NCBI GenBank assembly: GCA_001695645.1
Contig: LVZN01000012.1
Span: 30,001-62,000 of the forward strand
Reading direction: 5' to 3'
DNA: 32,000 bases
Source: Erysipelotrichaceae bacterium MTC7
GTDB lineage: Bacteria; Bacillota_I; Bacilli_A; Erysipelotrichales; Erysipelotrichaceae
Within the stretch, counting starts at the first letter, position 1. The number at the start of each line of letters is the position of its first letter. This document shows positions 5,117 through 29,831 of the stretch, in pieces. The notes below the pieces were generated by a model. The model ran no database searches. It was given only the letters and a program-made list of their open reading frames with translations, and had not been told where the DNA came from. The position numbers and the translations under genes are program-made.

Positions 5117-5233
5117 TAAATAAAGGAAGGCATAACCTAACGTTTTGCTTTCCTATATCTCATATGTAAAAACGTGTGTTTAGGGTTAGATTGAAATTGG
5201 GATGTAATGAAACTACAAGAAAGAGGAGAATCT

Positions 5234-8200: not shown

Positions 8201-9280
8201 GAACAAATGACAACACTTCATGCAAATACAAAAGCAACGAATGTACGTTTAACATTTACAGATGTTCAACCAAAAATTGCTGAAATCATGGTATGTGAAC
8301 GTACCGAAGATACAGACAATTTCCAAGCGCTTCGTCAACTTGTAAAAGAAGCAAATACGATTGATGCATCATTGTATACACCTATATCAGCTGCAAACTT
8401 TACCGACGCACGCACTGCTGCTAAAGAAGGTATTGCTAGTGGGGTAAATGAAGCAACTGCAAAAACACTGCATCAAGATCTTGAACAAGCAATGGCAAAG
8501 TTAATTTTAAATCCAAACAAGGATCTATTAGGATCACTTGTTGCAATTGCAAATGAAATTACAGATGAAGATATCGAAAATGTAATTCCAGTAGTAAAAG
8601 AAGAGTTTATTGAAGCAAGAACAGAAGCCAATGATTTGTTTGAAAATACAGAATCAAGTCAAAGTGAAGTAGATGCATCATTTGCACGATTGAGTCAAGC
8701 AATGCAAAAACTAGAGTTTGTGAAAGGTGATAAAACAAACTTAGAAAAACTAATCACATCAGTATCTGGATTGAACGAAAAAGAATACCGTCCAAGTACG
8801 TGGAAAGACTTTAGCAAAGCATTAAAAGAAGCTAAAGTTGTATTACATGATGAAAATGCAATGCAAGAAGAAGTGAATGCTTCTTATGAGACATTAATGA
8901 AGGCATTTGCAAATTTACGTTTGATTCCTGATAAATCGATGTTAGAAGGATTGTTAGAACAAGCAGATGCATTCAAAGCAAATGACTACACAAAAGAATC
9001 GTTTGCAGTATTAAAAGATGCAAAAAAAGAAGCGAAGAAAATCATCAATGATAAAGATGCTTCGCAAGAACAAGTTACTGCTAGTGAAGCAAACTTAACC
9101 AATGCAATCAAACAGTTGGAACCAACTTCACTTCCAAGTATTGCACCTGGTGATGACAGTAATGGTGGTGTTAACTCTGGAGATCACACATCAGTTGGAG
9201 GTTTATTAGCACTTGCAGGTATTGCAGCTGTTGCTGGAACATTAACTTGCGCAAATAAAAAAAGAAGAATGCAAAAATAA
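5234..9280 (+). CDS. Second secreted, wall-anchored GH84 beta-N-acetylglucosaminidase paralog, 1348 aa
   Basis: ORF opens at 5207, but SD gaaagaggag precedes the ATG at 5234, giving MHQTKHKLVIGSIVLAFALSL (signal peptide). GH84 block GYVEGFYGFPWTFEQR...NTYIYAPKDDPYHKDNW...QFGISYDDLEG...WWNYP. Three beta-sandwich/F5/8-C (CBM32-like) regions and FIVAR-like repeats follow. The C-terminal ~240 aa are paralogous to GH84-1, including the same VNSGD sorting signal. Confidence 0.9.
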   Translation: MHQTKHKLVIGSIVLAFALSLVMPVSSNTPVLYKNAVDVVEAKVDIYPKVQKQTYISEEGMKMESTVNVVVDELDNEAAMNRLVNILNEKQVVFEISDTVKDNVANIIVSNKGVDSKYLSYVHESEALSKEQGYVLDSSNDVNEHGNIAIVANDKEGAFYGIESLEQMLDQVNEVGYIAEISIDDFPSIVSRGYVEGFYGFPWTFEQRAQMLQDVGQLKMNTYIYAPKDDPYHKDNWKTLYPEKEAEEIRQLAAIAAENNVSFTWSIHPGTGFDYADDTDYNAIITKFEQLYSLGVRQFGISYDDLEGSVKGEDHANIINRVNDEWVKTKGDVKPLIVVATRYCNGWGPSPTTYLKPFLQALENSDVIVMWTGNNTMSPIKKEYFEVPKQQAGTTRDLAAWWNYPVNDYSDANLNMAPLEVVDTDVDNLAGFYVNPMPQAEASKVAIFSCADYSWNVEQFDYMSSWKTAIQKITPDATEAFERFADNTSYLNVGVVFDESRYLVEKINEFNKALESGEYLAENAAIMKAEFDTMLQDVETIRNMENTGMIKDIENHLKAYELTAQAGLLSMNALEAALSKDINATLDAVQLTRDKLNEANKVTITSLEPTGEKQTVVRVGEKRVKPMITSILDQADSILYGQFYQVKNPYAFGDIENIDDAAVIDSEGKLALTGVTEVNEGNSVGIAFGELTTVFNVQVTSSQCSDLKLEYSINGIDWDDVNTTVNGNVMTGIIPDAFVSVRIKATKNIVLDDFHITTLQEVTKGSVMTSMPSYEDNVIKNSFDNDLDTRFYSSSGSKKGDAFYLTLDQATNVYDASIIFGGNPKGIAEGIDGFAETKLSYSVDGRTWTEVGIVNMSDYKESRFGGTVLCSADFNLKGANVRHLKFEATKSHSNWVQVYEFDVNVGSKQSLDLVTTDITSGNSANLYDHSFSSLYAPTTVVAGDTLTYKLTTITNVSDILILQDRDVMSNAKVEIQLTNGQWEELGILDEQMTTLHANTKATNVRLTFTDVQPKIAEIMVCERTEDTDNFQALRQLVKEANTIDASLYTPISAANFTDARTAAKEGIASGVNEATAKTLHQDLEQAMAKLILNPNKDLLGSLVAIANEITDEDIENVIPVVKEEFIEARTEANDLFENTESSQSEVDASFARLSQAMQKLEFVKGDKTNLEKLITSVSGLNEKEYRPSTWKDFSKALKEAKVVLHDENAMQEEVNASYETLMKAFANLRLIPDKSMLEGLLEQADAFKANDYTKESFAVLKDAKKEAKKIINDKDASQEQVTASEANLTNAIKQLEPTSLPSIAPGDDSNGGVNSGDHTSVGGLLALAGIAAVAGTLTCANKKRRMQK
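8545..9267 (+). repeat. Copy 2 of the ~720-nt dispersed direct repeat
   Basis: See copy 1 (4381-5103). Confidence 0.9.
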
Positions 9281-9315
9281 AATATCATATATTTCATTGA
9301 TATAAGAAGGTAAGA

Positions 9316-9356
9316 AATGAGCACTAAGCATGAAAAATGCATGGTGCTCATTTTCA
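9316..9356 (+). terminator. Candidate terminator after GH84-2
   Basis: Perfect 9-bp stem aatgagcac (9316-9324) / gtgctcatt (9344-9352) with an inner gcat/atgc helix. The U-tail is short (ttttcac). Confidence 0.55.
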
Positions 9357-9426
9357 CATATACGTATGAAAACACAGAAAATATGACAATTGTAACGATA
9401 ATTCATGACAAAGGTCAAGTGTAATT

Positions 9427-9447
9427 GTAAAGCGCTTTCATTATAAT
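9427..9447 (+). promoter_or_regulatory. cre-like palindrome abutting a TATAAT -10 box upstream of the GH32 gene
   Basis: gtaaagcgctttca (9427-9440) matches the cre consensus at 12/14 positions; the right half is perfect and the left TG is displaced by 1 nt. tataat lies at 9442-9447, about 15 nt upstream of SD aaggagg. Confidence 0.35.
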
Positions 9448-9474
9448 GTGAATGTGTTTACAAAGGAGGAGTAT

Positions 9475-12400
9475 ATGATAAAATCGTTACACAAAAAAGT
9501 TTTTTGTCTATTCATGTGTACCTTAATGTTATTGAGTATGTTGCAACCAACGAACTATACCTTATTGGCACCAGAGACTAATGATGAGACAAATGAACAA
9601 GTACCTGCAGGGACATTTGATAATGAAATTGTAGGGGAAACATTGCAAGATTTTGATGCAATTCATGGGGGAGTTGAACAATCAGATGAACACTTAATAC
9701 TAAGCAATAGTGGGGGAGACAACTTTGCTATGTATAGTTCTGAGCAAACGTACAAAAGTTTTATCTATCAAGCAGATATTGAATTGCTTGAAGGTAGAAG
9801 TGCAGCTTTATTGATTGGTGTAGAAAATAAAGAAAATCCATCATCTCAAGTTTGGTATGGAGCCAATTTTGACGTTGAAGAAAATGAAAATTGCGCACGA
9901 TTATTTCGTGTAAATGGAGATCATCCAGGGAATGTTTTTGCTGTAGCTAAAGATGATACAAACGTTGATTTCTCACAAAAGTTGCGTTTGACTATTGAAA
10001 TTATGGAAGACGGTCAATTTGTTTATCAGCTAAAAAATACAGATGTTGAAGACAGTGGCTTTACACGCTCTGGATATGTTGATGGCTGGACTGGAGGTTC
10101 CATTGGGTTGTTGACATTTTGTAGTAAGGCAAAGTTTTCAAATATAACCTTACTTGATACATCCATAAATAACACGCAAGATCTTTTGCATACTAATGCT
10201 GGAAGCATCACAACGACAAGTGGTGCGTTTGCCATTGACAACAATGGACTACATTCCAATAATGAAGGAGATTCCTTTGCATTAATGGAGACCGCATATG
10301 AGGACTTCGTATATACAACGGATGTTAAATTTAACGAACGTAAAAATTCTTGTGCATCAATTGTATTTCGTGCAAGTGATGACTTAAATCAAAAAAATAT
10401 GTATGTAGCGAATCTGAATGGTGAAACTGGAGAAGTTCGACTGTTTAAATTCCAAAACAATGCAGCACTTGATTTAGTTGATTCACAAACCATTTCTCTT
10501 ACAGATAGTAATGAATACCATTTTAAAGTAACAGCAATTGGGAAACACTTTGTTTTCCATGTGAATGGTGAGCTAGCTTTAAATAGTGCAGATTATACAA
10601 TGGGAGGTATAAAAGGGCAAAACGATGCTTTTTACGCTGGATATGTTGGTGTGTTGACCTGGAATGGAAATGTTTCCTATCAAAACATTAATGTTTCACC
10701 TCTTACAGATGAAAACAATCCACAACTAAATGCGTTAACGCTGAATCAGACAAAACTGAACGAGAATGTAGTTAAAGATTTTGTCTTTCAAGAAGATCAG
10801 TACATTTATATTGGGTATGTGAAACATACGGCATCAAGCATCGATGTTACAGCTTCATTAAAAAGTGAACATACAAAGCTTGTTATAACAAATGAAGCAA
10901 ATGAAGAAGTGAATCTTGATAATTTACCATTACATGTTGGTAAAAATATTTATACAATTACAGCAAAAAATGGAACAGCTACAGTAGTATACCGTATGCT
11001 TATCCATCGTATGCAACCAGAAGAAACGCTATATAACGAGGACTATCGCGGGCAATATCACTATTCCGTGCAAGATGGATGGGCAAACGATCCAAATGGA
11101 ATGGTATATTACAATGGAACCTATCATTTGTTTTATCAATTTTATAACGATACCGTTTGGGGTCCAATGCATTGGGCACATGCCACAAGTACAGATTTGA
11201 TTCACTGGGAGGAGCAACCAATTGAATTTTATCCAGATGAGTATGGAACGATGTTCTCAGGTTGTGCCGTAGTTGATGCGAATAACGATTCGGGTTTATT
11301 TGAAGGAAATGAAGGAGGAATTGTTGCCTTAATTACCACTGATGGGAATGGACAGCGAATTATTGGAGCATATAGTCAAGATGGAGTAAATTGGAAAAAG
11401 ACTGATAATGTATTGATTGACTGGACAGAGGATGCACTACAATCTGATGCATTTAGAGATCCTAAAGTATTTCGTTATGAAAACAAATGGTTTATGGTCA
11501 TTGCCGGAGGACCGTTACGTATCTACTCTTCCGATAATTTATTGGATTGGAAAGTAGAATCGACATATGCGAATCTTCATACCGAATGTCCTGACTTATA
11601 TCCACTTGAAGTTTATGAAAATGGGCAGAAAACAAACGAAATAAAATGGGTTCTTGATCGTGGAGGACGTCAATATAAAATTGGTGATTTCAAGGAAGTC
11701 GATGGACATTGGTCATTTGTGCCTGATTCTGCCTATGCAAGCAATGACCATAACGGTATGGGAGGCATCGAAAATGATGGAATTATGAATTTTGGAAAAG
11801 ATTCATATGCAGCTATGACCTACTATATTGATGATTTTGGGACATCAGCAAACTTAAATCCACAAAGAATCATTGCGATTAATTGGATGAATACATGGGA
11901 TGATTATTGTAATAAAGTTGCTGACATCTCAGGTGTTGATACCTTTAATGGAACATTTAATTTACAACTTGAACTGTCAGTTGTCAAAGATAAAAATGGT
12001 CGATATGCATTAAAACAAACACCAATCAAAGAATATGAAGATTTACGAGATGAAGCATTGAGCTTAACAAATGAAACAATAGCAAACGAAAATCAATTGC
12101 TTTCTGACTTTGTTGGTGACTCTTATGAAATTGTGGCTAACGTTAGACCAAATGTAGAAACAAAAGAAGTTGGCTTTAAAGTTCGTGTTGGTGAAGATGA
12201 AGAAACCATTGTTTTCTATAATTTTGAAACTCAAACGGTTGGAATCAATCGTGCAAACTCTGGATTAATCCCACCAAATTCAAATGTATTTACCAATGTA
12301 GACCAACAATATGTTACGACAATTGAAGATGGTTCAGTCGATTTGCACATCTTTGTTGATCGCGCAAGTGTTGAGGTTTTCACAAAGAATGACACAGTCA

Positions 12401-14793
12401 CAGGAGCGAATCAAATCTTTGCCAATCCATTGAGTTTGGGTCTAGAAGTGTACAGCATTGGTGAAGCACCAAAGGCGGACATTACCATTTATAATTTGGC
12501 GTCGATATGGACGAACAAAGTTAACACAACAGATCCTGTAAGCGTTGGTGTATCCAAAGCAAGTCAAACCCTTTATGTTGGCGAAAGTTTTGAATTGAGA
12601 AGTTGGGTAAGCCCAGTAACTGCAAGCCAAGATGTCATTTATGAATATGATGACACATATTTGGAAATGAATGAGATAGCAGCGAACAAAAAGACGTTTG
12701 TGGCCAAACAAACAGGTCAAACAACCATTACCGTGCGCAGTGCAAATAATCCAGAGGTAAAAAAGGAATGTGTTGTCCAAATCTTTGAAGATAATTTTAA
12801 AACAAACTTAACGAATTATAGCTCAGTCAGCGGAAATTGGTATGTCGATGGGGAACTTATGATTGGTTCAAGTAACGACAATGCCTTTACCTTTGCAAAG
12901 GAGCGCATTGCAGGGGACTTCACCTATGAATTTGACCTTGTCTATACAGAAGGAATCGTTAATGCAATCTTTGCATCACAGGATACAAATGTGTGGAATG
13001 GATGTTATGCATTACAAATTCGCGAACAACAATTACGACTGTTTGACTTTAAAAATGATAAAACAATTGCTACGGCAACAACAAATGACAATAGAAATAG
13101 GACATTACATTTTGCAATACAAAGAACGGGAAATATACTTACCGTATTTGCAGATGACACACAAGTTCTTGAAGTGGATGTAGAACAAAGTGATGTTCCA
13201 TTATATACAGGCGGGTTGTTCGGTTTAGGAATCTATAATACAACAGCAAAATTTGCAAATGTATTCGTTAGCACAAGTAGTATGGCAACTGCAATTGTCG
13301 AAGATATTCAACCAGTATACTTGATTGAAAACTCTACCATTGAACAAATGTTACAATTGTTACCAGAAAGTGTCTCAGTGATTGGAGAAGATGGTATAAT
13401 CAAGCAACAAAAGGAAAGTATAACTTGGGATGTTGCATCTGTTGATTTGACAACTCCAAGTACCTACACAATCGTAGGTACAAGTTCATCAAACCTTACA
13501 ATTGAGGTACGTGTTGAGATAACTGTTAATATTGAAGTATTAAAAGAGGCACTAAAATCGGTTCTTGATAAAGCAAATAGCTTAGATATAAACGATTATG
13601 ATGCAATCGAATTTACTTGGTTTACCTTCGAAGTTGATGCAGCACAAGCTGTATATGACAATACAGAAGCAACAGCCCAAGAAATACAAGATGCAACATT
13701 ACAATTACAAACAGCGATGGATCAGTTAGTTAAAAAGTCACCAGTAGAAGTTGATAAAACATTACTGCAGCAAGCTCTAGCGTACGTGCGCATGTATATC
13801 GAAAATGGAACGGTTGATACACTTATTGATCAAGCAAAAAGGACGATTAATGAAGCATATGAAAATGGATTGACAATTTTTGAAAATGAACAAGCAACGC
13901 AAGCAGAGGTGGATGCGGCTTATCAAGAAATCATTCGTGCAACAGCATATCTTAACTTCGTTAACGGGGATACAACAAACCTAACAAGATTATATGAGAA
14001 TATGTTACTTGTCGATACAACACTATACTATGCTACGGGTGTTGACGCATTTAACTCTATCTTACAAGAAGTAGGGGTGCTTCTTGACACACCGGGAGGA
14101 CTACTGGTTGCGGAAGTTGAGCAAGCAACCGATCAGTTAATGAATGCGTATCGTGCAATGATTCGAAAGGCGGACAAGTCCTTGTTGGAAACGCTTATTG
14201 GGATAGCAAAAGGAAAACAAGCGCAAGAAACTTACTATGAATCTGCTAGCTATGAATCACTTATGAGTGAGCTTGCTTTAGCGATAGTTGTATATGATGA
14301 CAGTGAGGCTAGTGCACAAGAGATTCAAGAACGTATCGATGGACTAAACCAAGCATTGCTTGCACTGCGCTTGAAAGTTGATCGTGCCTACCTTAGTGCG
14401 CAGATTGCACTAATCAAAAAAATGGACATGACGCTGTACACCGGAAATTCAGTTCTTGTATTCATGGATAACGTACGTGAAATTGAAGCTTTCTTATTGA
14501 CACCAGACCAAGGTATGGAAATAGAAAAAGAAGTCTTATTGTCATATGCAATGCAACTGCAAGATGCAAAAGACAAACTGGAGTTAAAGGAACCAAAACC
14601 AAATACACCAGATGCAAATGACAACATGAAAGATAAACCAAGTAATTTGGATAAACTACCAGCACTTGACAGTCATAGCAAAAAACAAGCAGGAGTAGCA
14701 ACTGCTGATACTACAAATGCGCGAGCATTCTTACTGTTGTGTATAGCAGGAGGAATCATTATTTTACGAAGAGTCAAACGTAAAAAAATCTAA
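9475..14793 (+). CDS. Secreted, wall-anchored GH32 beta-fructosidase (FruA/levanase-inulinase type), multidomain, 1772 aa
   Basis: ORF opens with GTG at 9448, but SD aaggagg (9463-9469) serves the ATG at 9475, giving MIKSLHKKVFCLFMCTLMLL (signal peptide). GH32 catalytic triad motifs: WANDPNGMVYYNGTYHLFYQFY, FRDPKVF, ECPDLYPLE. It is flanked by concanavalin/LamG-like (DUF1080-like) modules, a Big_2-like domain and helical FIVAR-like repeats. C-terminus: VATAD, hydrophobic helix, RRVKRKKI. Confidence 0.9.
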   Translation: MIKSLHKKVFCLFMCTLMLLSMLQPTNYTLLAPETNDETNEQVPAGTFDNEIVGETLQDFDAIHGGVEQSDEHLILSNSGGDNFAMYSSEQTYKSFIYQADIELLEGRSAALLIGVENKENPSSQVWYGANFDVEENENCARLFRVNGDHPGNVFAVAKDDTNVDFSQKLRLTIEIMEDGQFVYQLKNTDVEDSGFTRSGYVDGWTGGSIGLLTFCSKAKFSNITLLDTSINNTQDLLHTNAGSITTTSGAFAIDNNGLHSNNEGDSFALMETAYEDFVYTTDVKFNERKNSCASIVFRASDDLNQKNMYVANLNGETGEVRLFKFQNNAALDLVDSQTISLTDSNEYHFKVTAIGKHFVFHVNGELALNSADYTMGGIKGQNDAFYAGYVGVLTWNGNVSYQNINVSPLTDENNPQLNALTLNQTKLNENVVKDFVFQEDQYIYIGYVKHTASSIDVTASLKSEHTKLVITNEANEEVNLDNLPLHVGKNIYTITAKNGTATVVYRMLIHRMQPEETLYNEDYRGQYHYSVQDGWANDPNGMVYYNGTYHLFYQFYNDTVWGPMHWAHATSTDLIHWEEQPIEFYPDEYGTMFSGCAVVDANNDSGLFEGNEGGIVALITTDGNGQRIIGAYSQDGVNWKKTDNVLIDWTEDALQSDAFRDPKVFRYENKWFMVIAGGPLRIYSSDNLLDWKVESTYANLHTECPDLYPLEVYENGQKTNEIKWVLDRGGRQYKIGDFKEVDGHWSFVPDSAYASNDHNGMGGIENDGIMNFGKDSYAAMTYYIDDFGTSANLNPQRIIAINWMNTWDDYCNKVADISGVDTFNGTFNLQLELSVVKDKNGRYALKQTPIKEYEDLRDEALSLTNETIANENQLLSDFVGDSYEIVANVRPNVETKEVGFKVRVGEDEETIVFYNFETQTVGINRANSGLIPPNSNVFTNVDQQYVTTIEDGSVDLHIFVDRASVEVFTKNDTVTGANQIFANPLSLGLEVYSIGEAPKADITIYNLASIWTNKVNTTDPVSVGVSKASQTLYVGESFELRSWVSPVTASQDVIYEYDDTYLEMNEIAANKKTFVAKQTGQTTITVRSANNPEVKKECVVQIFEDNFKTNLTNYSSVSGNWYVDGELMIGSSNDNAFTFAKERIAGDFTYEFDLVYTEGIVNAIFASQDTNVWNGCYALQIREQQLRLFDFKNDKTIATATTNDNRNRTLHFAIQRTGNILTVFADDTQVLEVDVEQSDVPLYTGGLFGLGIYNTTAKFANVFVSTSSMATAIVEDIQPVYLIENSTIEQMLQLLPESVSVIGEDGIIKQQKESITWDVASVDLTTPSTYTIVGTSSSNLTIEVRVEITVNIEVLKEALKSVLDKANSLDINDYDAIEFTWFTFEVDAAQAVYDNTEATAQEIQDATLQLQTAMDQLVKKSPVEVDKTLLQQALAYVRMYIENGTVDTLIDQAKRTINEAYENGLTIFENEQATQAEVDAAYQEIIRATAYLNFVNGDTTNLTRLYENMLLVDTTLYYATGVDAFNSILQEVGVLLDTPGGLLVAEVEQATDQLMNAYRAMIRKADKSLLETLIGIAKGKQAQETYYESASYESLMSELALAIVVYDDSEASAQEIQERIDGLNQALLALRLKVDRAYLSAQIALIKKMDMTLYTGNSVLVFMDNVREIEAFLLTPDQGMEIEKEVLLSYAMQLQDAKDKLELKEPKPNTPDANDNMKDKPSNLDKLPALDSHSKKQAGVATADTTNARAFLLLCIAGGIIILRRVKRKKI

Positions 14794-19308: not shown

Positions 19309-19860
19309 ATGGGCTTAAATAAAAAAAGATGTCGTTGGGTAAATCTCAATAATGAAAATTATGTAAAATATCATGATCATGTGTGGGGACAAGCAACACA
19401 TGATGATAAAGAACTATTTGAAATGTTAGTACTTGAATCATTCCAAGCAGGTTTGTCTTGGGAATGTATTTTGAATAAACAACAGTCATTTCAGAATGCA
19501 TTTGATCAATTTGATGTAATTACTGTAAGTCATTATACAAATGAGAAAGTAGAAGCTCTTATGCAAGATGCATCCATTGTGCGAAATCGTCGAAAAATAC
19601 TAGCAACTATTCAAAATGCAAAAGTGTTTCAAAAGATTCAAAAAGAATATGGAACATTTGATGCATATATTTGGAGTTTTACAGAAGGAAAAACGATTTA
19701 CGAAGTAGATCAAGGATCTTCAAATTTGTCTAAACAAATCTCGAAAGATTTGAAGAAAAGAGGAATGAATTTTGTTGGGCCAACAATTGTCTATTCGTTT
19801 TTACAAGCCATTGGAATCTTGGATTGTCATGAACCGGATTGTTATTTATATCAAAAATAA
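19309..19860 (+). CDS. tag: DNA-3-methyladenine glycosylase I
   Basis: RCRWVNL..NYVKYHDHVWG...ELFEMLVLESFQAGLSWECILNK...RNRRKI...GPTIVYSFLQAIG...H..DC parallels E. coli Tag throughout, including the C-terminal Zn-ligand region. Weak SD. Confidence 0.9.
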   Translation: MGLNKKRCRWVNLNNENYVKYHDHVWGQATHDDKELFEMLVLESFQAGLSWECILNKQQSFQNAFDQFDVITVSHYTNEKVEALMQDASIVRNRRKILATIQNAKVFQKIQKEYGTFDAYIWSFTEGKTIYEVDQGSSNLSKQISKDLKKRGMNFVGPTIVYSFLQAIGILDCHEPDCYLYQK

Positions 19861-19870
19861 AAAGGAGAAC

Positions 19871-20848
19871 TTAGCGTTTTCCTTTTTTGTAGTCGACAAG
19901 TGCTTTGTTGAGAATGAAAATCATATCATCGCGTAATTCAACTGGTTTAACAATTTGACAATATTTTGCATATTGCAGTGCCCAGTATAAAATGCCTTGT
20001 TTGGTTGATTTAATTTTTGCTTCGAATGTATGACTACCTAGATCCTTGATTTGAATGTTTGTGCCAAAGGTGTCAATGATATCATCAAGAATGGATGCTT
20101 CACAGTGTAAGGTAATGTATAGTTCATCACCAGAATACATGTAAATTTTATTTGCTATATAGTCATATGGGTTTAACTCATCTTTTCGTTCAAATGACTC
20201 ATCTGTAAGTTTTAAATCCTGGATTTTATCAATGCGGTAATGTGATAAACTATTATGTTTTTCGTTGTAGCTGATAAGGTAGTAACGCTCGTTACTATAT
20301 ACAAGTTCGTAAGGGCATAACTCATATCTTTTTTCTCGACGGGCGATGAGTTTTTTATGATAATCGTATTTGGTGTAAATAAAGGTTACTTTTTTTCGAC
20401 TTTGAATGGCTTCAAGTAAAAGTTCAACATTGAGAAAAAATTCTCGATTTGCTGATTTCTTGTAATTGGTTGTATACACGCGCTCACGAAACGCTTTAGC
20501 TTGGTATTTACTTTGTGTTTTAAGTAGAGCATCAATCAAGTGTTTGCTTTCCGCTTCAGGAATGATTGCAGAAGCGTGAATGGAATGACAAATGAGATTG
20601 ACTTCACTTGGCTCAAATGCGCGTTCAAGTAAGTAATAACCTTGTTTGTTTTGCTCGTATGTTGATATATCGTAACCAAAGTCTTGAAGCATCTGTATAT
20701 TTGCATACAGTGTCCGTCGTTCTGCACGTAAACCATAACGAGCTTCCAGTAGTTCTTGTAACTGCACCCGTGTTAAGGGATGTTGTTCATCACTATCATT
20801 ACGTAAAATTTCCAATAAAGCTAATGGGATTGATTTCTTTTGGTCCAT
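19871..20848 (-). CDS. WYL-domain transcriptional regulator (N-terminal wHTH, WYL, C-terminal extension), 325 aa
   Basis: ORF opens at 20914, but SD gaaagagg precedes the ATG at 20848 (MDQKKSIPLALLEILRN...). wHTH: LTRVQLQELLEARYGLRAERRTLYANIQML. WYL-type SH3-like block: VTFIYTKYDYHKKLIARREKRYELCPYELVYSNERYYLISYN...HYRIDKI. Confidence 0.8.
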   Translation of the reverse strand: MDQKKSIPLALLEILRNDSDEQHPLTRVQLQELLEARYGLRAERRTLYANIQMLQDFGYDISTYEQNKQGYYLLERAFEPSEVNLICHSIHASAIIPEAESKHLIDALLKTQSKYQAKAFRERVYTTNYKKSANREFFLNVELLLEAIQSRKKVTFIYTKYDYHKKLIARREKRYELCPYELVYSNERYYLISYNEKHNSLSHYRIDKIQDLKLTDESFERKDELNPYDYIANKIYMYSGDELYITLHCEASILDDIIDTFGTNIQIKDLGSHTFEAKIKSTKQGILYWALQYAKYCQIVKPVELRDDMIFILNKALVDYKKGKR

Positions 20849-20938
20849 AAGATACCTCTTTCCTATATGTATCATATCATGTGTCAGTTTTTTTGCACTA
20901 GTGATTTGATACATTATTGATGTAAGGAGGATGTGAAA
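20849..20938. promoter_or_regulatory. Divergent control region between the WYL regulator and the HIRAN/SNF2 genes, with candidate operators
   Basis: 8-bp inverted repeat atgtatca (20867-20874) / tgatacat (20907-20914). Perfect palindrome cactagtg (20896-20903). On the minus strand, an extended -10 tgatatgat lies upstream of the regulator's SD. The function of these elements is inferred only. Confidence 0.35.
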
Positions 20939-21265
20939 ATGGAAAAACTTGCAATTACGATATTAAATATGTGCCAAAGATCCTATGCAACAATTAAAGT
21001 GGGGACAGTGTTAACCTTGGTAAAAGACACAAACAACCATTTTGATGATGAAGCAATCGAGGTCCTTGATGGGGATGAAGAAGAAGTTGGGTTTGTTGCT
21101 AACAGTGTTTCAACGGTGATTCGTGGAACCTATAGTGCAGGAAGAATCTACGATAAAATCGATGACCATCAAAAAGTGGTTGTTAAATATGTACATCATA
21201 ATTCGAAGGTTATTGCAGAAATTGAATGGACAGATCAAAAACTTCAAAAGGATCACGAACAATAA
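20939..21265 (+). CDS. Small stand-alone HIRAN-like domain protein, 108 aa
   Basis: SD aaggagg lies 8 nt before the ATG at 20939; the GTG at 20933 is too close. Core VGTVLTLVKDTNNHFDDEAIEVLDGDEEEVGFVANSVS...AGRIYDKID follows the HIRAN pattern (h.L.REP.NpyD.nAI.V....g..vGyv......l..l.d) seen in HLTF/Rad5. Confidence 0.55.
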   Translation: MEKLAITILNMCQRSYATIKVGTVLTLVKDTNNHFDDEAIEVLDGDEEEVGFVANSVSTVIRGTYSAGRIYDKIDDHQKVVVKYVHHNSKVIAEIEWTDQKLQKDHEQ

Positions 21266-21298
21266 AGCCTGCATTGGTTGTATTAGTCTAGTCGAATG

Positions 21299-21328
21299 AA
21301 GAGAGAAATAAATACACTCTCTTTTTTT
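21299..21328 (+). terminator. Intrinsic terminator/attenuator between the HIRAN and SNF2 genes
   Basis: Perfect 7-bp stem aagagag (21299-21305) / ctctctt (21317-21323), 11-nt loop, T5 tail. A possible extended -10, tgttaaaat, follows downstream. Confidence 0.6.
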
Positions 21329-21388
21329 GATTCGTATGATTGTAGTACAAGATGTGTTAAAATAAAGGGATACAAAGGAGTATGTGCC

Positions 21389-24300
21389 ATGTACTTAAGC
21401 GACGAAAAAATTAAAGAAATTGTAAAGAAACCGGGGAACTTTAATTGGGCTAAACGCCACCAAGGAGAAGATGACCTTTTTCTTGCATACGATGTTTTAC
21501 CTGGTGAGTCAGGGCAAGATATACTAGCAACTGTACTGTACCAAGGGTATGAGAGTGATGTAAGAATTCGTCTCAATACTTTTGATTCGGTTGTATCGCA
21601 CGAATGTAACTGTCGTTTTCATACTCCTTCATCCGCATGTGGTCATGTGGGACTGGCATTGTTTAAATATCGTAATGATTACCAACAAGGAGAAGCACAA
21701 ACACCAGGACTACGAAGTGTACAGGCATTACAACGTGCCCAAGAAGTGCAAGAAAGAAGAGATGAGATTGAGCGAGCTAAGGAACTAAGACGCAAGGAAA
21801 TTCAGGCAAGTTACTATGTTCAAGAAGCAACAGAATTCTTACAAAAAATGCAGGAGAAAGAAAAACAAACACTGATTGCTGAATATGACGATCATCAGTA
21901 TCATTTAGAGTTTACCTTTGAAAGACAAAAGGGGTATTACTATTACAATTACGCTAATGATTTCACTTTGAGTGCCAAAATTGGCTACGACAAAACATAT
22001 GTGGTTAAAAACTTACATCAATTGATTGAACATATTCAAAATGAAAGTTTTGTGACATATGGAAAATTCCTTGCATTTCGACATCGCTTGGATTCTTTTG
22101 ATGAATCTAGTATGCAAGCCATTGCATTTTTGGAACGTTCGCTAAGGGCACCAAATCACTATAGTGATGACCGCTATTTAACAATTGATACTGAGAATAT
22201 TGATCAATTCTTTGATGTTTTTAGCAATATACCAGGCCTGATTAATATTCAATTTTCACAGGAAGATTTAATTGTTGATGTACATGTTAGAGAACTTGGT
22301 GATTACTACTTGCTAGAACTTCAACATGAAGACATTCACAATTATCTAGAAGGGGCCCAACATTATTATCAATTTAGTAAGCATACACTTACGCGTTATG
22401 CAATTCACGATGATCCTATGGTCCATGATTTTATTAAGCAGATTATGTATGATCAGTTTTATATTAAAAAAACAGAACTTCAAAAAACGTTGAATTACTT
22501 GCTTAGTGTGTTTGAAAACACCATCGTTTTTCACGGAGTGGATATTGATCAAAGTTATGAAGACCGTATAACGCTTTATGCAGATATTCAAGATGAACAT
22601 GTAATCGTTAAAGTCTTGCTTAGTTGGGAAGATGGATTTTCAAAAAGTTTGTTTGAACAAGATAATCGAGCAATTTCTCATAATGCAAACAACCTAAAAT
22701 TCATACTTGAATCATATGACTTTCATGAAAACAAAGAGAAAAAAGAACTTACCAAAAACTTTCATGATCAAGATACCATTTTCTTCATTGAACAAGTGTT
22801 ACCAAGTTTAAAAACGTATGCCGAAGTATTCATTAGTGATGCCATTAAGCATTTTGATAAAAACAAGTCCATTGGTATCCAAGTAGGTGTTCGTATTCAA
22901 AACAATCTGTTGTCAATTGATGTATCCAGCGTGAATTGCAACCCTGAAGAGTTAAAAGATATTTTGAAGGATTTCCGTAAAAAACGAAAATACCATCGTT
23001 TAAAGAATGGTGAAATCATTTCCTTGGAAGGAGAAAGTATTGCAGAGTTTGATCGCATGATGGAAGATATGCATATGGATCTCAAGGATATTGATTCAAC
23101 GATGAATGTACCTGTACATTACGCATTTCAAATGGATGATGCCATTCACAATTTCCAACAAATCACGGGAAAAGAAGAAACTAGTTTTAAAGAATTTTTA
23201 CATTCATTTGAACAGATTGATCCAACAAAACTAGAAATTGCCCCTACATATGAAGCACTGTTAAAAGACTATCAGAAACATGGAGTTCGTTGGATGATGC
23301 TTTTAAGTATGTATGGTCTTGGTGGTATTCTTGCAGATGATATGGGTCTTGGAAAAACACTACAAGCAATTGCACTATTAGAAACAAAACATGAGCCAGG
23401 AACGACGAGTCTAATTGTGACACCGGCATCGTTGATGCTGAACTGGCAAGATGAATTTGTGAAGTTTGATTCAAAGTTATCCTATTTGTGTATTTATGGA
23501 GATGCGCAAACACGTAATAGAATGATTGAGGAAAGTAAGAACTACGATGTGATTATTACGACTTATGACTATCTAAAGCGTGACATTGATGCATATGAGT
23601 CGATGCACTTTGACTATTTGATTATCGATGAAGCACAATATATAAAAAACCAAACAACAAAAGCCGCAAAAAGTGTAAAACGATTACACAGTCGCGTGCG
23701 CTTTGCCTTAACAGGGACACCAATTGAAAACAGCTTAGCGGAACTATGGAGTATCTTTGATTTCTTAATGCCTACCTATCTTTACAGTTATCGTTACTTT
23801 AAGCAACAATTTGAAAGTCCAATTGTGCTAGAAAACGATGAGAAAAAACAAGCGACTTTAAAGCGAAGAATCGAACCGTTTTTATTGCGTCGTCGTAAAG
23901 AAGATGTACTTAAGGAACTACCAAGTAAAATTGAAAAGAACCTTCGCTTCAACTTTGACTTAGAAGAAGAAAAACTCTATGTTGCAAAACTTTCACAAGT
24001 AAATGAAGACTTACAAGCTTTTATGCAAAGTGAAGAAAATCACCAAATAGAAATCTTGAAGTTATTGATGCAATTACGTCAAATTTGTTGCGAACCACGT
24101 ATGTTATTTGATTCCATTGATCATCCTTCAAGCAAGTTGCGTGGATGTATGGAAATTGTGGAGTCACTAAAAGAAAGTAAACAAAAAGTATTGATTTTCT
24201 CATCCTTTACCACCATTCTTGATTTCATTGCAGAAGAGTTAGATGCGCGTAATATGAGTTACTTAAAGTTGACTGGAGAAGTCAATAAGACAAAACGTAA

Positions 24301-24646
24301 AGAGTTGGTTCAACGCTTTCAAGCAAATGAAGTTGATGTATTCTTAATTTCACTAAAAGCAGGTGGAGTTGGATTAAACTTAACCAATGCGCAAGCGGTG
24401 ATTCATTATGACCCGTGGTGGAACTTATCCGCACAAAACCAAGCAACTGACCGTGCACATCGTATTGGTCAAGAACACGAGGTGACAGTGTTTAACTTAA
24501 TTATGAAAAATTCAATTGAAGAGAAAATATTAGAATTGCAATCAAAGAAGAAAGAGATTGCAGATACATTTGTTGAAAACTCTGAAGGAAGTATCACTCG
24601 AATGTCCGCTTCAGATATTATGGGTTTGTTGCAAAGAACAGAGTAA
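21389..24646 (+). CDS. SNF2-family DEAD/H-box ATPase/helicase with N-terminal SWIM zinc finger (YwqA-like architecture), 1085 aa
   Basis: ORF opens at 21296 across the terminator, but SD aaaggag precedes the ATG at 21389. SWIM CxCx8CxH: ECNCRFHTPSSACGHV (21605-21646). A long middle region follows. SNF2 motifs: I ILADDMGLGKTLQ, II LIIDEAQYIKN, III LTGTPIENSL. The Helicase_C region carries LISLKAGGVGLNLT and QATDRAHRIGQ. Confidence 0.9.
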   Translation: MYLSDEKIKEIVKKPGNFNWAKRHQGEDDLFLAYDVLPGESGQDILATVLYQGYESDVRIRLNTFDSVVSHECNCRFHTPSSACGHVGLALFKYRNDYQQGEAQTPGLRSVQALQRAQEVQERRDEIERAKELRRKEIQASYYVQEATEFLQKMQEKEKQTLIAEYDDHQYHLEFTFERQKGYYYYNYANDFTLSAKIGYDKTYVVKNLHQLIEHIQNESFVTYGKFLAFRHRLDSFDESSMQAIAFLERSLRAPNHYSDDRYLTIDTENIDQFFDVFSNIPGLINIQFSQEDLIVDVHVRELGDYYLLELQHEDIHNYLEGAQHYYQFSKHTLTRYAIHDDPMVHDFIKQIMYDQFYIKKTELQKTLNYLLSVFENTIVFHGVDIDQSYEDRITLYADIQDEHVIVKVLLSWEDGFSKSLFEQDNRAISHNANNLKFILESYDFHENKEKKELTKNFHDQDTIFFIEQVLPSLKTYAEVFISDAIKHFDKNKSIGIQVGVRIQNNLLSIDVSSVNCNPEELKDILKDFRKKRKYHRLKNGEIISLEGESIAEFDRMMEDMHMDLKDIDSTMNVPVHYAFQMDDAIHNFQQITGKEETSFKEFLHSFEQIDPTKLEIAPTYEALLKDYQKHGVRWMMLLSMYGLGGILADDMGLGKTLQAIALLETKHEPGTTSLIVTPASLMLNWQDEFVKFDSKLSYLCIYGDAQTRNRMIEESKNYDVIITTYDYLKRDIDAYESMHFDYLIIDEAQYIKNQTTKAAKSVKRLHSRVRFALTGTPIENSLAELWSIFDFLMPTYLYSYRYFKQQFESPIVLENDEKKQATLKRRIEPFLLRRRKEDVLKELPSKIEKNLRFNFDLEEEKLYVAKLSQVNEDLQAFMQSEENHQIEILKLLMQLRQICCEPRMLFDSIDHPSSKLRGCMEIVESLKESKQKVLIFSSFTTILDFIAEELDARNMSYLKLTGEVNKTKRKELVQRFQANEVDVFLISLKAGGVGLNLTNAQAVIHYDPWWNLSAQNQATDRAHRIGQEHEVTVFNLIMKNSIEEKILELQSKKKEIADTFVENSEGSITRMSASDIMGLLQRTE

Positions 24647-24663
24647 AAGAAAGGAAGACGGGT

Positions 24664-26124
24664 TTATTCGTCATCCTTTTTAAGTTCATCAAATTTTGCT
24701 TTCATCGTCGGATTTTTACGTGTTAGTTTTTTGACGGTTAAGTCATTTGCTTTATTATTAGCAAGACGTAAATTATCTTCTGAGGAAAGTAATGCTGCTT
24801 TTGTTTTTTCTAACTGCTTAATGGTTTTATCGATTCCTTCAACAGCTTCTTTGAACCGCCTACTTGCAAGGTCATAGTTTTTACCAAATGCTTTTTTGAA
24901 TGCATCAAGTTCGTGTTCAAAGTTGGTTATATCGATGTTTTGTGCTCGCATTTGTGCAACCTCTTGTTTATAGGTGAGCGTATTCATGGCTGCATTTCGA
25001 AGCAATCCAATGAGTGGGATAAAAAACTGAGGGCGAATAATGTACATCTTTGGATATTCATAAGACATGTCAACGATTCCGTTGTTGTAGAAATCATTAT
25101 CCATTTCAAGCATTGATACAAGGACTGCATATTCGCAGTTCTTTTTCTTTCGATCACTATCAAGCTTCTTTAAATGATCACTGTTTCGCTTCTTTGTTGT
25201 TGTTTCATCTGCTTCGTTTTTCATTTCAAACATGATGGAGATAATTTCGTTTTGCTCATGATCATATTCACGATAAATATAGTCTCCTTTAGTTCCTTCA
25301 ACGGCAATGTTATCTTTTCCAAACTGTGCGTTAGGGAAGGCAGTTGTGCGAATTTTATTAAATTCATTTTCACAATATTGTTCTAACGACTCCCCAATCA
25401 TTTTTGTCGATTGACGTGCTTTGAAGTCTTTATACGTTTCTACCTCTTCTTGTTTTAAACGCAATTGCAATTCGTATGTCTCTTTCAATGTTTGCTTTTC
25501 AAGTTCGCTTTCACGTTCTTTAAGTGCAACTTCATGTTCTACACGTTCAAGTTTGTTTTGATTCTCTAGGGCAAGCGACTGAAGCTTGTTTTGCAATTCG
25601 AGTAGTTCTTTATCTTTTTCACTGAGTGCATCCTTGATTGCATACGCTTTTTCTTGATCCAAAGCTTCAGCTTTAGCAACCAGTTGTGCAATTTTTGCTT
25701 CCTTGGTAGCTAGTTGGGTTTGAAGTTCTTGTTCAGCTTTACTCACAGCTAACTCTTTTTCTTGGTCCAAAGCTTCAACTTTAGCAACTAGTTGTGCAAT
25801 TTTTGCTTCCTTGGTAGCCAGTTGCGTTTGAAGTTCTTGTTCGGCTTTACGAACCGCCAATTCTTTCTCTTGATTACTAGCTTCAATTTTTGCTTCCAAT
25901 TGAGCAAGTTCTTGTTCTTTTTTAGCAAGTTCGTTTGCTAAGTTTCCTTTTGCTTTTTCATTAGCCAACGCTAAATCCTTTTGATGTTGAACCTCTAATT
26001 GTTCAAGTTTCGTATGAAGTTCTTGATCAAATTCCTTTGTTTTTACTTGTTTAAGTATATCAGCGTATCCAGCATCGTCTAAAGTAAAGGTCTTGTGACA
26101 ATGAGGACATTGAATGTTATGCAT
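24664..26124 (-). CDS. DUF2130-type protein: N-terminal CxxC knuckle, long coiled coil, C-terminal PD-(D/E)xK-like nuclease fold (RmuC-like organisation), 486 aa
   Basis: SD aggagg. N-terminus [27 protein letters not shown] is typical of DUF2130 as I remember it. About 200 aa of heptad-rich E/K/Q/L/A sequence follow. C-terminal putative nuclease motif: E(QYCENEF)...GTKGDYIY...[10 protein letters not shown] (D281, E300, K302; nt 25219-25284). Confidence 0.75.
25648..25869 (-). repeat. In-frame tandem duplication (2 x 108 nt = 2 x 36 aa, plus the start of a third unit) in the coiled-coil region
   Basis: [36 protein letters not shown] / [36 protein letters not shown]. The nucleotide units are offset by exactly 108 nt, with about 11 mismatches per unit by eye. 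Confidence 0.9.
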
Positions 26125-28167: not shown

Positions 28168-28584
28168 ATGCAAATTTCAAAAGATGAGCTACTCAAAGCA
28201 TTTTGTGAGATCGACGATGTTGAAAATATGTACTATAACACGGATGATGAAACGATTATGATTGATGATGGTGATGGGCTCTTTTACGATGATGAGGTGT
28301 ATACAGTAGAAGATTTTGTGAATCAATATGGAGATGTTTTGATTCCACTTCCAAGTGCTCGTGAAATGAATGAAGCAAGCGTCGCTCGTGCATTTATCAA
28401 ACAAGAACACGATGAAAAAAATCGCCAAATGTTAGTTGATGCATATAACAACGGTGGATTGACTGGATTTTTATCAAAGTTACATGAATACAAAATGCAA
28501 AACTTATATCTTGAATTCAAGCAACAAATTCAAAAAGACGAAGCGGTTGAGTGGGCAAAAGACAACGACATCGACGTAATTTAA
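28168..28584 (+). CDS. Small acidic hypothetical protein, UPF0158-like, 138 aa
   Basis: Strong SD aaaggagg and its own terminator. D/E-rich N-terminal half. The C-terminal half (LIPLPS...FI...RQML.DAYNNGG..GF...L.......EF.....E.AVEWAKDNDI) resembles the UPF0158 pattern as I remember it. The family call is tentative. Confidence 0.45.
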   Translation: MQISKDELLKAFCEIDDVENMYYNTDDETIMIDDGDGLFYDDEVYTVEDFVNQYGDVLIPLPSAREMNEASVARAFIKQEHDEKNRQMLVDAYNNGGLTGFLSKLHEYKMQNLYLEFKQQIQKDEAVEWAKDNDIDVI

Positions 28585-28655: not shown

Positions 28656-29831
28656 ATGAAGCGTACATCAAAAAACAAGCAACAGGAAATATTTGAAGAG
28701 GCTGTTGGCTTTTATGAACACGGGTTAGTTACATTTAAAGGTCAAAAAGAAGGTGTTCTTCATTTTGAAGTAGATGGAAAGCAAGTGGTGATTCATGCAG
28801 AAACCGAAGAGGTTTTGCACTGCGATTGTAAGGACTGTACACCGTATGCAGATTGTGTACATGCAGTAGCCGCACTTATGTATTTAGGTGAATTGCAGGC
28901 CGAGGATGAAGAGGAAGAAGATCAAGAATTCGTTGATCCTGAGATTATTGATTTGGTTGATGAAACGGACTATGAATTTGTGAAACAATTTGCTTGTGCT
29001 ATCTTGCATGACAGTCCAGAGCTATTAGAAATGTTTAAACAAATGCGAGCAGAACGTGATGAACAACTGGAAGATATCGCTGGAACTAGTTTTATGCATA
29101 CGCTACGAGTCTTGTTTGCTCGTTACAGTAATATGGATAATGGATATTACAATGTCGATGGTTTATTGGATGATCTTGATGCAATTGTGGATGAAGAAGC
29201 AAGAGATTTACAAACAGAAGAACAAATGATTTCAATTTTGGATATGATGAGTGTCGTGCACATCTATTTACAAGCTTTAGATGAAAACTACATGGAACGA
29301 ATCAATATGTCGTATAACCATATGTTAGATTATGTTAGAAAGTTCTCACGTAAACTCAAAGGTGAAGACAAAGACCAATTGTTTGCACAACTCAAAGAGA
29401 TTGTTTCTGAGTATATGTTTGGAGCTTATACCCATCTAGCAGAAGATGTATTTGTGGAAGAATTTTCAGAAGCAAAATACTTAGAAGATAAAATAGATGT
29501 ATGTTATGAAAAATTAAATGAGCGAAACTTCTTGGATGATGGGGAAATGAGTGATTTACTCTATTCTAGATGGATGAGTAGTATTGTTACATTATTCTTA
29601 CAGGCTGGTCATTCCTTAGAGTATATAAAGGACCGGATTGAAGATGAATATGATGAAGTTGCTGCTAGAGCCATTTTAATTGAAGTGGGAAAATATCAAA
29701 AAGAGTATACATTTGTAAGAGAAGTATTAAATGATTCAATGAAACTAGATCAAGCACATCCGTATTTGGTCAAAAAATACGAAAAAGAATTGGTGAAGAT
29801 TAAAAAAATGACAGAGACACATTTGAATTAA
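28656..29831 (+). CDS. SWIM zinc-finger protein with acidic linker and a C-terminal all-helical domain of unknown function, 391 aa
   Basis: SWIM CxCx8CxH: LHCDCKDCTPYADCVHAVAALMYL, preceded by beta-strand-like FEVDGKQVVIH. An EDEEEEDQE linker follows, then about 290 aa of helical sequence with no motif I recognise. Confidence 0.75.
   Translation: MKRTSKNKQQEIFEEAVGFYEHGLVTFKGQKEGVLHFEVDGKQVVIHAETEEVLHCDCKDCTPYADCVHAVAALMYLGELQAEDEEEEDQEFVDPEIIDLVDETDYEFVKQFACAILHDSPELLEMFKQMRAERDEQLEDIAGTSFMHTLRVLFARYSNMDNGYYNVDGLLDDLDAIVDEEARDLQTEEQMISILDMMSVVHIYLQALDENYMERINMSYNHMLDYVRKFSRKLKGEDKDQLFAQLKEIVSEYMFGAYTHLAEDVFVEEFSEAKYLEDKIDVCYEKLNERNFLDDGEMSDLLYSRWMSSIVTLFLQAGHSLEYIKDRIEDEYDEVAARAILIEVGKYQKEYTFVREVLNDSMKLDQAHPYLVKKYEKELVKIKKMTETHLN

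Follow-up and report, generated by a model that had tools for sequence, protein, structure and literature searches.

Does a HIRAN gene placed directly before an SNF2 ATPase gene amount to a bacterial HLTF/Rad5, or do the two genes belong to different units? This question is raised by a locus of Erysipelotrichaceae bacterium MTC7, which lies in a 32,000-nucleotide stretch of contig LVZN01000012.1 (positions 30,001 to 62,000; hereafter the window, within which its coordinates are given). A regulator with winged helix-turn-helix (wHTH), WYL, and WCX domains (19871-20848, minus strand) shares a divergent 90-bp control region (20849-20938) with a stand-alone HIRAN protein of 108 amino acids (aa) (20939-21265, plus strand). 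The regulator has 325 aa counted from the conserved ATG; its mechanical open reading frame (ORF) is longer and extends to 20914. The HIRAN gene is followed by an SNF2_assoc/SNF2 ATPase of the YwqA / pneumococcal-Snf2 family with a putative SWIM finger (21389-24646, plus strand; 1085 aa), the start of which agrees with the NCBI and Breznakia gene models. The HIRAN, SNF2, and WYL proteins match NCBI entries A4S06_01450, A4S06_01455, and A4S06_01445, respectively, at 100% identity. An earlier reading of this DNA, made from the letters alone and hereafter called the sequence-only reading, had joined these genes with a DUF2130 protein and the glycosylase Tag in a split HLTF/Rad5-like module. All of its genes, sizes, and spacings were found where it had placed them, and its domain calls (WYL regulator, HIRAN, SNF2, DUF2130, and Tag) proved correct by Pfam or structure. 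As a whole, the locus is a composite rather than a four-gene machine. The conserved unit, to which we assign a probability of roughly 0.6, appears to be a two-gene cassette of the wHTH-WYL-WCX factor and a divergent HIRAN protein of ~100 aa, which accompanies DNA-targeting systems and of which SNF2 is probably not a dedicated partner.

The regulator has 66 full-length homologues. Context look-ups combined with metagenome and viral scans gave ~55 non-redundant WYL loci, in which HIRAN genes were detected by an iterated HIRAN search and Pfam annotations. Eight independent loci, MTC7 counted, carry a small HIRAN ORF directly upstream of and divergent from the WYL gene, with spacers of 45-180 bp and WYL proteins that are 39-70% identical. 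The divergent pair singled out by the sequence-only reading is a real and conserved association. What lies beyond HIRAN is SNF2 in the MTC7 window, a type I-C Cas3-Cas5d-Csd1-Cas7-Cas4-Cas1 operon in L191 (WYL 46% identical to that of MTC7), and Cas9-Cas1-Cas2 in Amedibacillus (L091; 48%) and L144 (43%). Breznakia sp. PF5-3 (L089/L090; WYL 55%, HIRAN 51%) has Csn2-Cas2-Cas1-Cas9 and a 46-repeat CRISPR array, which begins ~100 bp after the WYL stop codon in L089, that is, beside the WYL gene. In L093/L094 (WYL 44%), a 155-aa gene precedes Wadjet JetABCD, composed of JetA (DUF2397), JetB (DUF2398), SMC-like JetC, and JetD (DUF3323/DUF2399), and only small genes follow in L096 (41%) and L098 (39%). 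The genes after HIRAN are mutually non-homologous across the cassettes. The cassette recurs in Erysipelotrichales and related gut Bacillota beside unrelated systems, namely type I-C, cas9 operons, type II-A, and Wadjet. Because the small-HIRAN family comprises only 1160 representative clusters among 1.84 billion, a chance adjacency of WYL and HIRAN is implausible.

When the WYL proteins are placed in a neighbour-joining tree, the HIRAN-positive loci all fall in one subclade. The HIRAN-bearing locus L089 is sister to MTC7 and its Breznakia orthologues, and therefore HIRAN appears to be ancestral and lost in the latter. Read most simply, the tree suggests that WYL and HIRAN were paired ancestrally and that HIRAN was lost several times, including from the SNF2-linked copy of Breznakia. 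A comparison with the Breznakia spacer for sequence remnants did not polarize the HIRAN insertion or deletion, and the polarity is that of the WYL tree. On one viral contig (L181), WYL, one intervening gene, and HIRAN are all co-directional.

Several side observations were made at these loci. A conserved second gene after HIRAN was considered and rejected because the 155-, 135-, 97-, and 263-aa proteins at that place are mutually unrelated. The WYL-HIRAN spacer of L091 is ~800 bp long owing to an inserted 103-aa Zn-ribbon ORF (9359-9667), which resembles the N-terminus of an insertion sequence transposase. The cassettes of L089 (3320-13781) and L191 (1-8972) both lie beside SIS/PRD/phosphotransferase system (PTS) sugar genes, and this site may be a chromosomal hotspot in which the CRISPR types (II-A and I-C) were swapped. 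The WYL genes of L187 (8001-15637; 51%) and L188 (212-7188; 48%), which have no HIRAN neighbour, are directly upstream of an AddAB-like pair, consisting of a PDDEXK_1 protein of ~860 aa and a UvrD-helicase/PDDEXK_1 protein of ~1120 aa. L187 looks plasmid-like because of the presence of ParA/ParB and a DnaD-like gene.

The regulator matches the Pfam WYL family (E-value 4e-12) and the PADLOC WYL models (5.8e-26). Its WCX domain is weak by sequence (18 bits in Pfam, under the cut-off of 23.9). The AlphaFold2 (AF2) model, with a predicted local distance difference test score (pLDDT) of 89.3, has a complete wHTH-WYL-WCX chain, in which wHTH and WCX are both present. In Foldseek searches, the model aligns over ~345 columns with DriD, PafBC, CapW, and BrxR, and the best match is DriD (E 1.6e-12). 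Repressors of the BrxR/CapW type with the wHTH-WYL-WCX architecture are neighbours of BREX, CBASS, restriction-modification, CRISPR-Cas, Wadjet, and further defence systems. CapW (PMC11662680), DriD (PMC10853764), and PafBC (PMC11804915) each bind single-stranded DNA (ssDNA) via the WYL domain and switch transcription, and BrxR-family regulators co-localize with numerous defence systems, CRISPR-Cas and Wadjet among them (PMC9122601). By analogy with these proteins, the MTC7 regulator is probably a DriD/CapW/BrxR-like sensor of ssDNA. The link of such regulators to defence, drawn by the sequence-only reading, is borne out by the subfamily loci, which adjoin CRISPR-Cas and Wadjet genes. Around the more distant members of the WYL family, genes for restriction, McrBC, PvuRts1I/SRA, PD-(D/E)XK proteins such as PDDEXK_4, type I restriction endonuclease, PDC-S26, and nSTAND3 abound, as do mobile-element genes, in agreement with the published picture for BrxR homologues (PMC9122601).

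The HIRAN call stood up to both profile and fold comparison. The 108-aa protein scores 29.1 bits against Pfam HIRAN (PF08797), above the cut-off of 24.7, with profile positions 7-62 of 96 covered. A profile of its family matches lp_0118 (3k2y) with an E-value of 3e-7 and the HIRAN domain of HLTF with 0.008 among PDB sequences. In the AF2 model (pLDDT 84.6; predicted template-modelling score 0.78), the predicted fold is that of HIRAN: the 16 best Foldseek matches in the PDB are all HLTF HIRAN or lp_0118, with template-modelling (TM) scores of 0.5-0.6 and a probability of 1.0, and the top ones are HLTF HIRAN (6kcs, 4s0n, and 4xzg; TM 0.59). N33-H-F35-D36 aligns with N-P-Y-D of HLTF, and N33 and D36 of this N-x-[YF]-D motif are invariant in the family alignments. 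We take Y93 and D94 of HLTF to be the aromatic and Asp residues of its 3'-OH pocket. Judged from the aligned residues, the small HIRAN protein appears to keep the Asp/aromatic 3'-end pocket of HLTF HIRAN. The PADLOC PDC-M03B models gave a weak match to this protein. A metagenomic protein from the Joint Genome Institute (P0008; 193 aa) joins an XRE-family HTH to a HIRAN domain of the same family, which is therefore wired directly to the DNA-binding domain of a transcription factor. With HipL and HipN (PMC8262856), this protein exemplifies sensor-like HIRAN modules in other bacteria, which favours the cassette.

We then asked whether SNF2 keeps company with any of its neighbours. From an alignment of SNF2_assoc-type homologues, we collected 80 loci of different species with flanks of up to 10 kb (1.43 Mb in total), mostly from Lachnospiraceae, other Clostridia, Erysipelotrichaceae, and Collinsella, with 30-45% identity. 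A phmmer search with the window proteins WYL, HIRAN, DUF2130, Tag, p138, and p391 (the last two are described below) found them in 0 of the 80 loci, and hidden Markov models of the HIRAN and WYL families gave zero matches at E<=1 in the 1.43 Mb. The 219 flanking genes of the non-redundant SNF2 loci are unrelated housekeeping genes, among which no Pfam family occurs more than 5 times, and three metagenomic SNF2 homologues have similarly varied neighbours. The SNF2-MatE adjacency was considered as a marker of the ancestral position, but it was seen at 7 of 84 loci, a frequency that does not clearly exceed chance for a gene family this common, and was dropped. The neighbours of the SNF2 family thus vary freely, a pattern that the sequence-only reading had itself named as speaking against its module and that was found for both the HIRAN and DUF2130 links. 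Conservation of the four-gene module could not be upheld.

The nearest orthologues are those of Breznakia species (79% identity for both SNF2 and WYL). A Breznakia locus (L088) is syntenic over the EIIA, Tag, WYL, SNF2, DUF2130, MatE, 138-aa, 388-aa, and flavin reductase genes. No HIRAN gene was found in the orthologous Breznakia loci, where the WYL and SNF2 genes are spaced by 162 bp. In the comparison of MTC7 with Breznakia, conservation extends over ~75 bp adjoining the WYL start and over ~45 bp ahead of the SNF2 start, and ~430 bp of MTC7 (HIRAN and a hairpin) stand in place of ~55 bp. The Breznakia SNF2 gene is intact, and the ratio of non-synonymous to synonymous substitution rates (dN/dS) of ~0.07, with saturated dS, indicates purifying selection. 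Therefore, HIRAN is not needed to keep the helicase. Because the Breznakia synteny runs to MatE and beyond, the DUF2130 and Tag links reflect close relatedness. The membership of these two genes in a module, as previously proposed, comes down to genus-level synteny with Breznakia only.

The intergenic regions of MTC7 contain several candidate signals, of which the promoter boxes were read by eye. Candidate extended -10 boxes are present for the WYL gene at 20871-20879 (minus strand; TGATATGAT) and for the HIRAN gene at 20907-20915 (plus strand; TGATACATT), the latter being conserved in Breznakia. Between HIRAN and SNF2, a hairpin with an 11-nt loop and a U7 tract is located at 21298-21328 (plus strand; GAAGAGAG / CUCUCUUU). 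The RNA fold of 21266-21345 has an energy of -19.8 kcal/mol (z -2.66 versus shuffles), and the hairpin is possibly a weak terminator or attenuator; a simple terminator scan did not flag it because its loop exceeds 8 nt. Another candidate extended -10 is located upstream of SNF2 at 21355-21363 (plus strand; TGTTAAAAT), within the ~45-bp block conserved before SNF2, and Breznakia has TGGTAGAAT at the same place. Because of the hairpin with its U-tract and this candidate box, SNF2 may be a separate transcription unit. A scan with consensus promoters and terminators found no more sites than in shuffled sequence, and none in the spacers.

Among the alternatives, one treats SNF2, perhaps with the DUF2130 protein as a nuclease, as defence or anti-plasmid cargo that occupies the slot of CRISPR-Cas or Wadjet and is induced by the same switch. 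The position and orientation of SNF2 relative to HIRAN are indeed those of Cas3, Cas9, and JetABCD elsewhere, and Breznakia has the same WYL-SNF2-DUF2130 gene order. DISARM, Zorya, Dpd, and BREX variants include SNF2 helicases, and PADLOC models of helicases of these types match the SNF2 core strongly. These matches (DpdE, ZorD, and DrmD) are generic ones to the core, and PADLOC found no companion genes of BREX, DISARM, Zorya, Druantia, or Dpd beside SNF2. The locus therefore does not belong to any of these systems, and the sequence-only reading, which had noted that companions of BREX, DISARM, Zorya, and Druantia were missing, was right on this point. The D...E.K-like pattern in DUF2130, seen by eye, is compatible with a nuclease; however, DUF2130 is missing from all the other SNF2 and WYL loci examined, its synteny is confined to Breznakia, and the Breznakia synteny extends past MatE, as expected from close relatedness. 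The SNF2 family is widespread with housekeeping-like, freely varying neighbours, and its characterized members have transcription or RNA polymerase as their target: YwqA of B. subtilis, described as a poorly characterized Swi2/Snf2 translocase, interacts with RNA polymerase (PMC7385302), and pneumococcal Snf2 represses pilus genes (cited in PMC8465756). Moreover, the surroundings are a carbohydrate-utilization region, and the window has no other defence genes. We consider this alternative doubtful.

The alternative raised at the outset, in which HIRAN and SNF2 are halves of an HLTF/Rad5-like fork remodeller that the WYL factor induces and the DUF2130 nuclease and Tag assist, with HIRAN passing the 3' end to the motor, is improbable. 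It draws on the HIRAN fold with its conserved pocket Asp, on the intact SNF2 ATPase directly downstream on the same strand, on the response of WYL relatives to ssDNA (PMC11662680, PMC10853764), and on the requirement of HLTF for its HIRAN domain when it acts on 3' ends (PMC11237066). The adjacency, however, is found in MTC7 only: the Breznakia relatives have WYL-SNF2 without HIRAN and keep SNF2 under purifying selection, and none of the 80 other SNF2 loci has a HIRAN gene. HIRAN instead tracks the WYL gene before Cas3, Cas9, and Wadjet. The best 150 of the 1160 HIRAN representatives are nearly all 80-280 aa long, and, because the longest has 660 aa, there is no fusion of SNF2 length among them. 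SNF2 is of the SWIM/SNF2_assoc type, and in it Pfam found no RING domain but only SNF2_assoc, SNF2-rel_dom, Helicase_C, and generic helicase/ATPase models. In addition, the hairpin with its U-tract and a possible separate promoter stand between the two genes. Owing to the unconserved linkage and the lack of a RING domain, the locus does not fall under the definition of an HLTF/Rad5-like system, and HIRAN is probably not a dedicated partner or subunit of the SNF2 motor. The occurrence of HIRAN beside SNF2 in one genome is insufficient evidence of a bacterial HLTF.

A mobile, phage-derived HIRAN gene that repeatedly lands in the gap beside WYL genes as an insertion-site effect with no functional link would fit the phage-like modules around its closest relatives (L002 and L001), the seven viral contigs that carry members of its family, and the HIRAN indel between MTC7 and Breznakia, but it is hardly likely given the same divergent layout and short spacers in eight loci with WYL proteins only 39-70% identical, the grouping of the HIRAN-positive loci in one WYL subclade, and the retention of the pair on the viral contig L181.

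The two-gene cassette, which we prefer, has itself to be weighed against a number of observations that count against it. The WYL census is of modest size and includes many short metagenomic contigs. Some WYL loci of the same subclade (L092, L095, and L187-L189) have no HIRAN gene, and HIRAN is therefore dispensable for the regulator. The correlation between the pairwise identities of WYL and HIRAN is weak (rho 0.44, p 0.049), no surprise with a protein of ~95 aa. The nearest sequence relatives of MTC7 HIRAN (~60% identity) lie within phage-like replication modules in which no WYL gene was detected. A shared operator was sought in nine WYL-HIRAN spacers and none was found: the sole recurrent box, ATC[AG]TAACA, located 16-35 nt from the WYL start, reads TGnTA[TC]GAT on the WYL strand, an extended -10 (20871-20879 in MTC7), and therefore we make no operator claim. 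Several cassettes have a HIRAN-cargo gap of 120-360 bp, and in MTC7 this gap holds the hairpin and the possible separate promoter; because of these gaps, co-regulation of the cargo, SNF2 included, stays putative. The gaps of 200-360 bp between HIRAN and cas3 or cas9 resemble the HIRAN-SNF2 gap of MTC7. Finally, the window shows no marks of a defence island or mobile element around the MTC7 locus.

As for the phage-like modules themselves, SNF2 neighbours had been expected for the HIRAN homologues, and these modules were met instead. In L002 (2-1715), the gene order is a DnaB-like helicase, a 79-aa gene, HIRAN, and a 245-aa gene. The L001 contig (401-10724) bears DUF1351/RNase_T, and its HIRAN gene is followed by the 245-aa gene conserved in L002. 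Two contigs with such HIRAN relatives stop just upstream of HIRAN.

How might a WYL-HIRAN cassette work? By analogy with DriD, PafBC, and CapW, the regulator would bind the shared 90-bp control region, and its WYL domain would sense ssDNA produced by damage or by the processing of foreign DNA. Sensing would switch the divergent promoter and hence the expression of HIRAN. The downstream cargo would perhaps be switched too, either through read-through of the weak hairpin or from a second operator. The chances that SNF2 is a regulated target of the WYL factor are about even. HIRAN, as the first regulated product, would bind the 3' ends of ssDNA in the manner of HLTF HIRAN, and would probably modulate that signal, serving as feedback or as co-sensor, or mark the ends for the downstream system. 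HLTF HIRAN binds 3' ends and is required to displace Cas9 from cut DNA (PMC11237066). Taken together, WYL, which would read ssDNA, and HIRAN, which would read or titrate 3' ends as a co-sensor or feedback brake, may form a switch that gates CRISPR-Cas, Wadjet, and SNF2. We put this forward tentatively, at somewhat less than even odds. WYL regulators are emerging as a common on-switch of bacterial immune systems, for which ssDNA is a known cue. That CRISPR-Cas and Wadjet loci are headed by a conserved HIRAN partner, whose fold is specialized for 3' DNA ends, suggests a further layer of sensing or feedback, and, if the switch is real, it would be the first role assigned to the stand-alone HIRAN proteins of prokaryotes. 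Prokaryotic HIRAN domains were still called uncharacterized in a survey of 2024 (PMC11090510).

In the SNF2 protein, Pfam detected SNF2_assoc (PF08455; 1.8e-38), SNF2-rel_dom (PF00176; 1.9e-75), and Helicase_C (PF00271; 3.2e-25), and the motifs CNCRFHTPSSACGH, DDMGLGKT, DEAQ, and QATDRAHRIGQ are seen, so that motifs I, II, and VI are present. A SWIM-like CxCx8CxH motif is present, and its Cys and His columns are kept in the homologue consensus. Pfam SWIM gave no match at E<=0.01 to the MTC7 protein, and the homologues P0013, P0015, and P0023 bear SWIM (PF04434). The best NCBIfam match is pilus_reg_Snf2 (NF053675), which covers nearly the full length with 508 bits, under the equivalog cut-off of 1100. 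Apart from the Breznakia orthologue, all homologues are at most 45% identical.

Downstream of SNF2, the DUF2130 gene (24664-26124, minus strand; 486 aa) is convergent with it and ends 17 nt from the SNF2 stop codon. The protein has a CxxC motif, a coiled coil, and the C-terminal D...E.K-like motif, and matches PF09903 (1.3e-85; profile positions 2-254 of 255). Neither a PDB sequence relative nor a PHROG was found for it, and LmuB matched only weakly, through the coiled coil. A tandem duplication of 108 bp (36 aa; 2.1-2.7 copies) is present in the coiled-coil region of the gene (25647-25937), and, against the 486 aa of MTC7, the Breznakia orthologue has 450 aa, 36 fewer. On the other side, the Tag 3-methyladenine glycosylase gene (19309-19860, plus strand; 183 aa; Pfam Adenine_glyco, E 1.5e-68) ends 10 nt from the WYL stop codon. 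Besides MTC7, Tag adjoins the WYL gene only in L088 of Breznakia. The dS of Tag between the two (19309-19857 versus 10992-11540 of L088) is ~0.37, and those of SNF2, DUF2130, and MatE are saturated (dS > 1.5); the low value may come from noise, given the shortness of the gene, from codon constraint, or from exchange at a later time.

A 391-aa protein (p391; 28656-29831, plus strand) contains a second SWIM-like motif, CxCx9CxH (HCDCKDCTPYADCVH), and gave zero matches in Pfam, NCBIfam, PADLOC, and PHROG. It is preceded by a 138-aa ORF (p138; 28168-28584, plus strand), and Breznakia has syntenic counterparts of p391 and p138 (388 and 138 aa). A role of p391 as a YwqB-like partner of SNF2 was rejected because it is missing from all 80 SNF2 loci. 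The remainder of the window consists of carbohydrate genes, including glycoside hydrolases (GH) of families GH84, GH32, and GH4, PTS, and RpiR genes. Three very large secreted-type glycosidases, followed by RpiR and a PTS/GH4 operon, occupy 1778-14793; two of them are GH84 beta-N-acetylglucosaminidases with F5/8-type-C, PKD, and FIVAR domains, and the third is a GH32 protein of 1781 aa. This is an ordinary region for host-glycan utilization.

Compared with known systems, the MTC7 locus shares parts with several of them. HLTF/Rad5 combines HIRAN, SNF2, and RING in one protein, whereas HIRAN and SNF2 of MTC7 are separate polypeptides, and SNF2 is of the bacterial SWIM/SNF2_assoc type. What they have in common is the HIRAN fold (TM 0.59), the Asp of N-x-[YF]-D, and an SNF2 ATPase encoded alongside. 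With the YwqA / NF053675 family, the MTC7 SNF2 shares near full-length homology, SNF2_assoc, and neighbours that vary across genomes, but it is preceded by a WYL(-HIRAN) cassette, which is not seen with other members. The protein lp_0118 (3k2y) has the same small stand-alone HIRAN fold. HipL and HipN carry HIRAN modules in toxin-antitoxin systems, where they were proposed to sense the DNA ends of invading phages (PMC8262856); by contrast, the MTC7 HIRAN has neither HipS nor a kinase fusion and is paired with a WYL regulator.

Among the WYL regulators, DriD is the nearest PDB match (8tp8 and 9pfq; Foldseek E ~1e-12, profile E ~1e-6), followed in the profile search by PafC (E 0.0015). The wHTH-WYL-WCX layout is common to DriD, PafBC, and the MTC7 regulator, at only ~16% identity. 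DriD of Caulobacter and PafBC of mycobacteria are ssDNA-activated activators of DNA-damage regulons and, unlike the MTC7 regulator, have not been described with a HIRAN partner; the MTC7 regulator might exert control of either sign. CapW (9c5g and 7tb6) and BrxR (7t8k and 7qfz) have the same three-domain architecture (Foldseek probability 1.0) but are remote, with Foldseek E-values of ~1e-6 and zero sequence matches at E 0.01. The habit of adjoining varied defence systems is common to the BrxR/CapW family and the present WYL subfamily. The conserved divergent HIRAN partner goes unmentioned in the WYL-regulator literature that we found, BrxR/CapW included, and, in the literature that could be searched, articles containing both terms treat WYL and HIRAN separately, and no description of their pairing was found. 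Each protein of the MTC7 locus thus belongs to a known family, and the new element is the conserved WYL-HIRAN pairing that heads diverse DNA-targeting systems.

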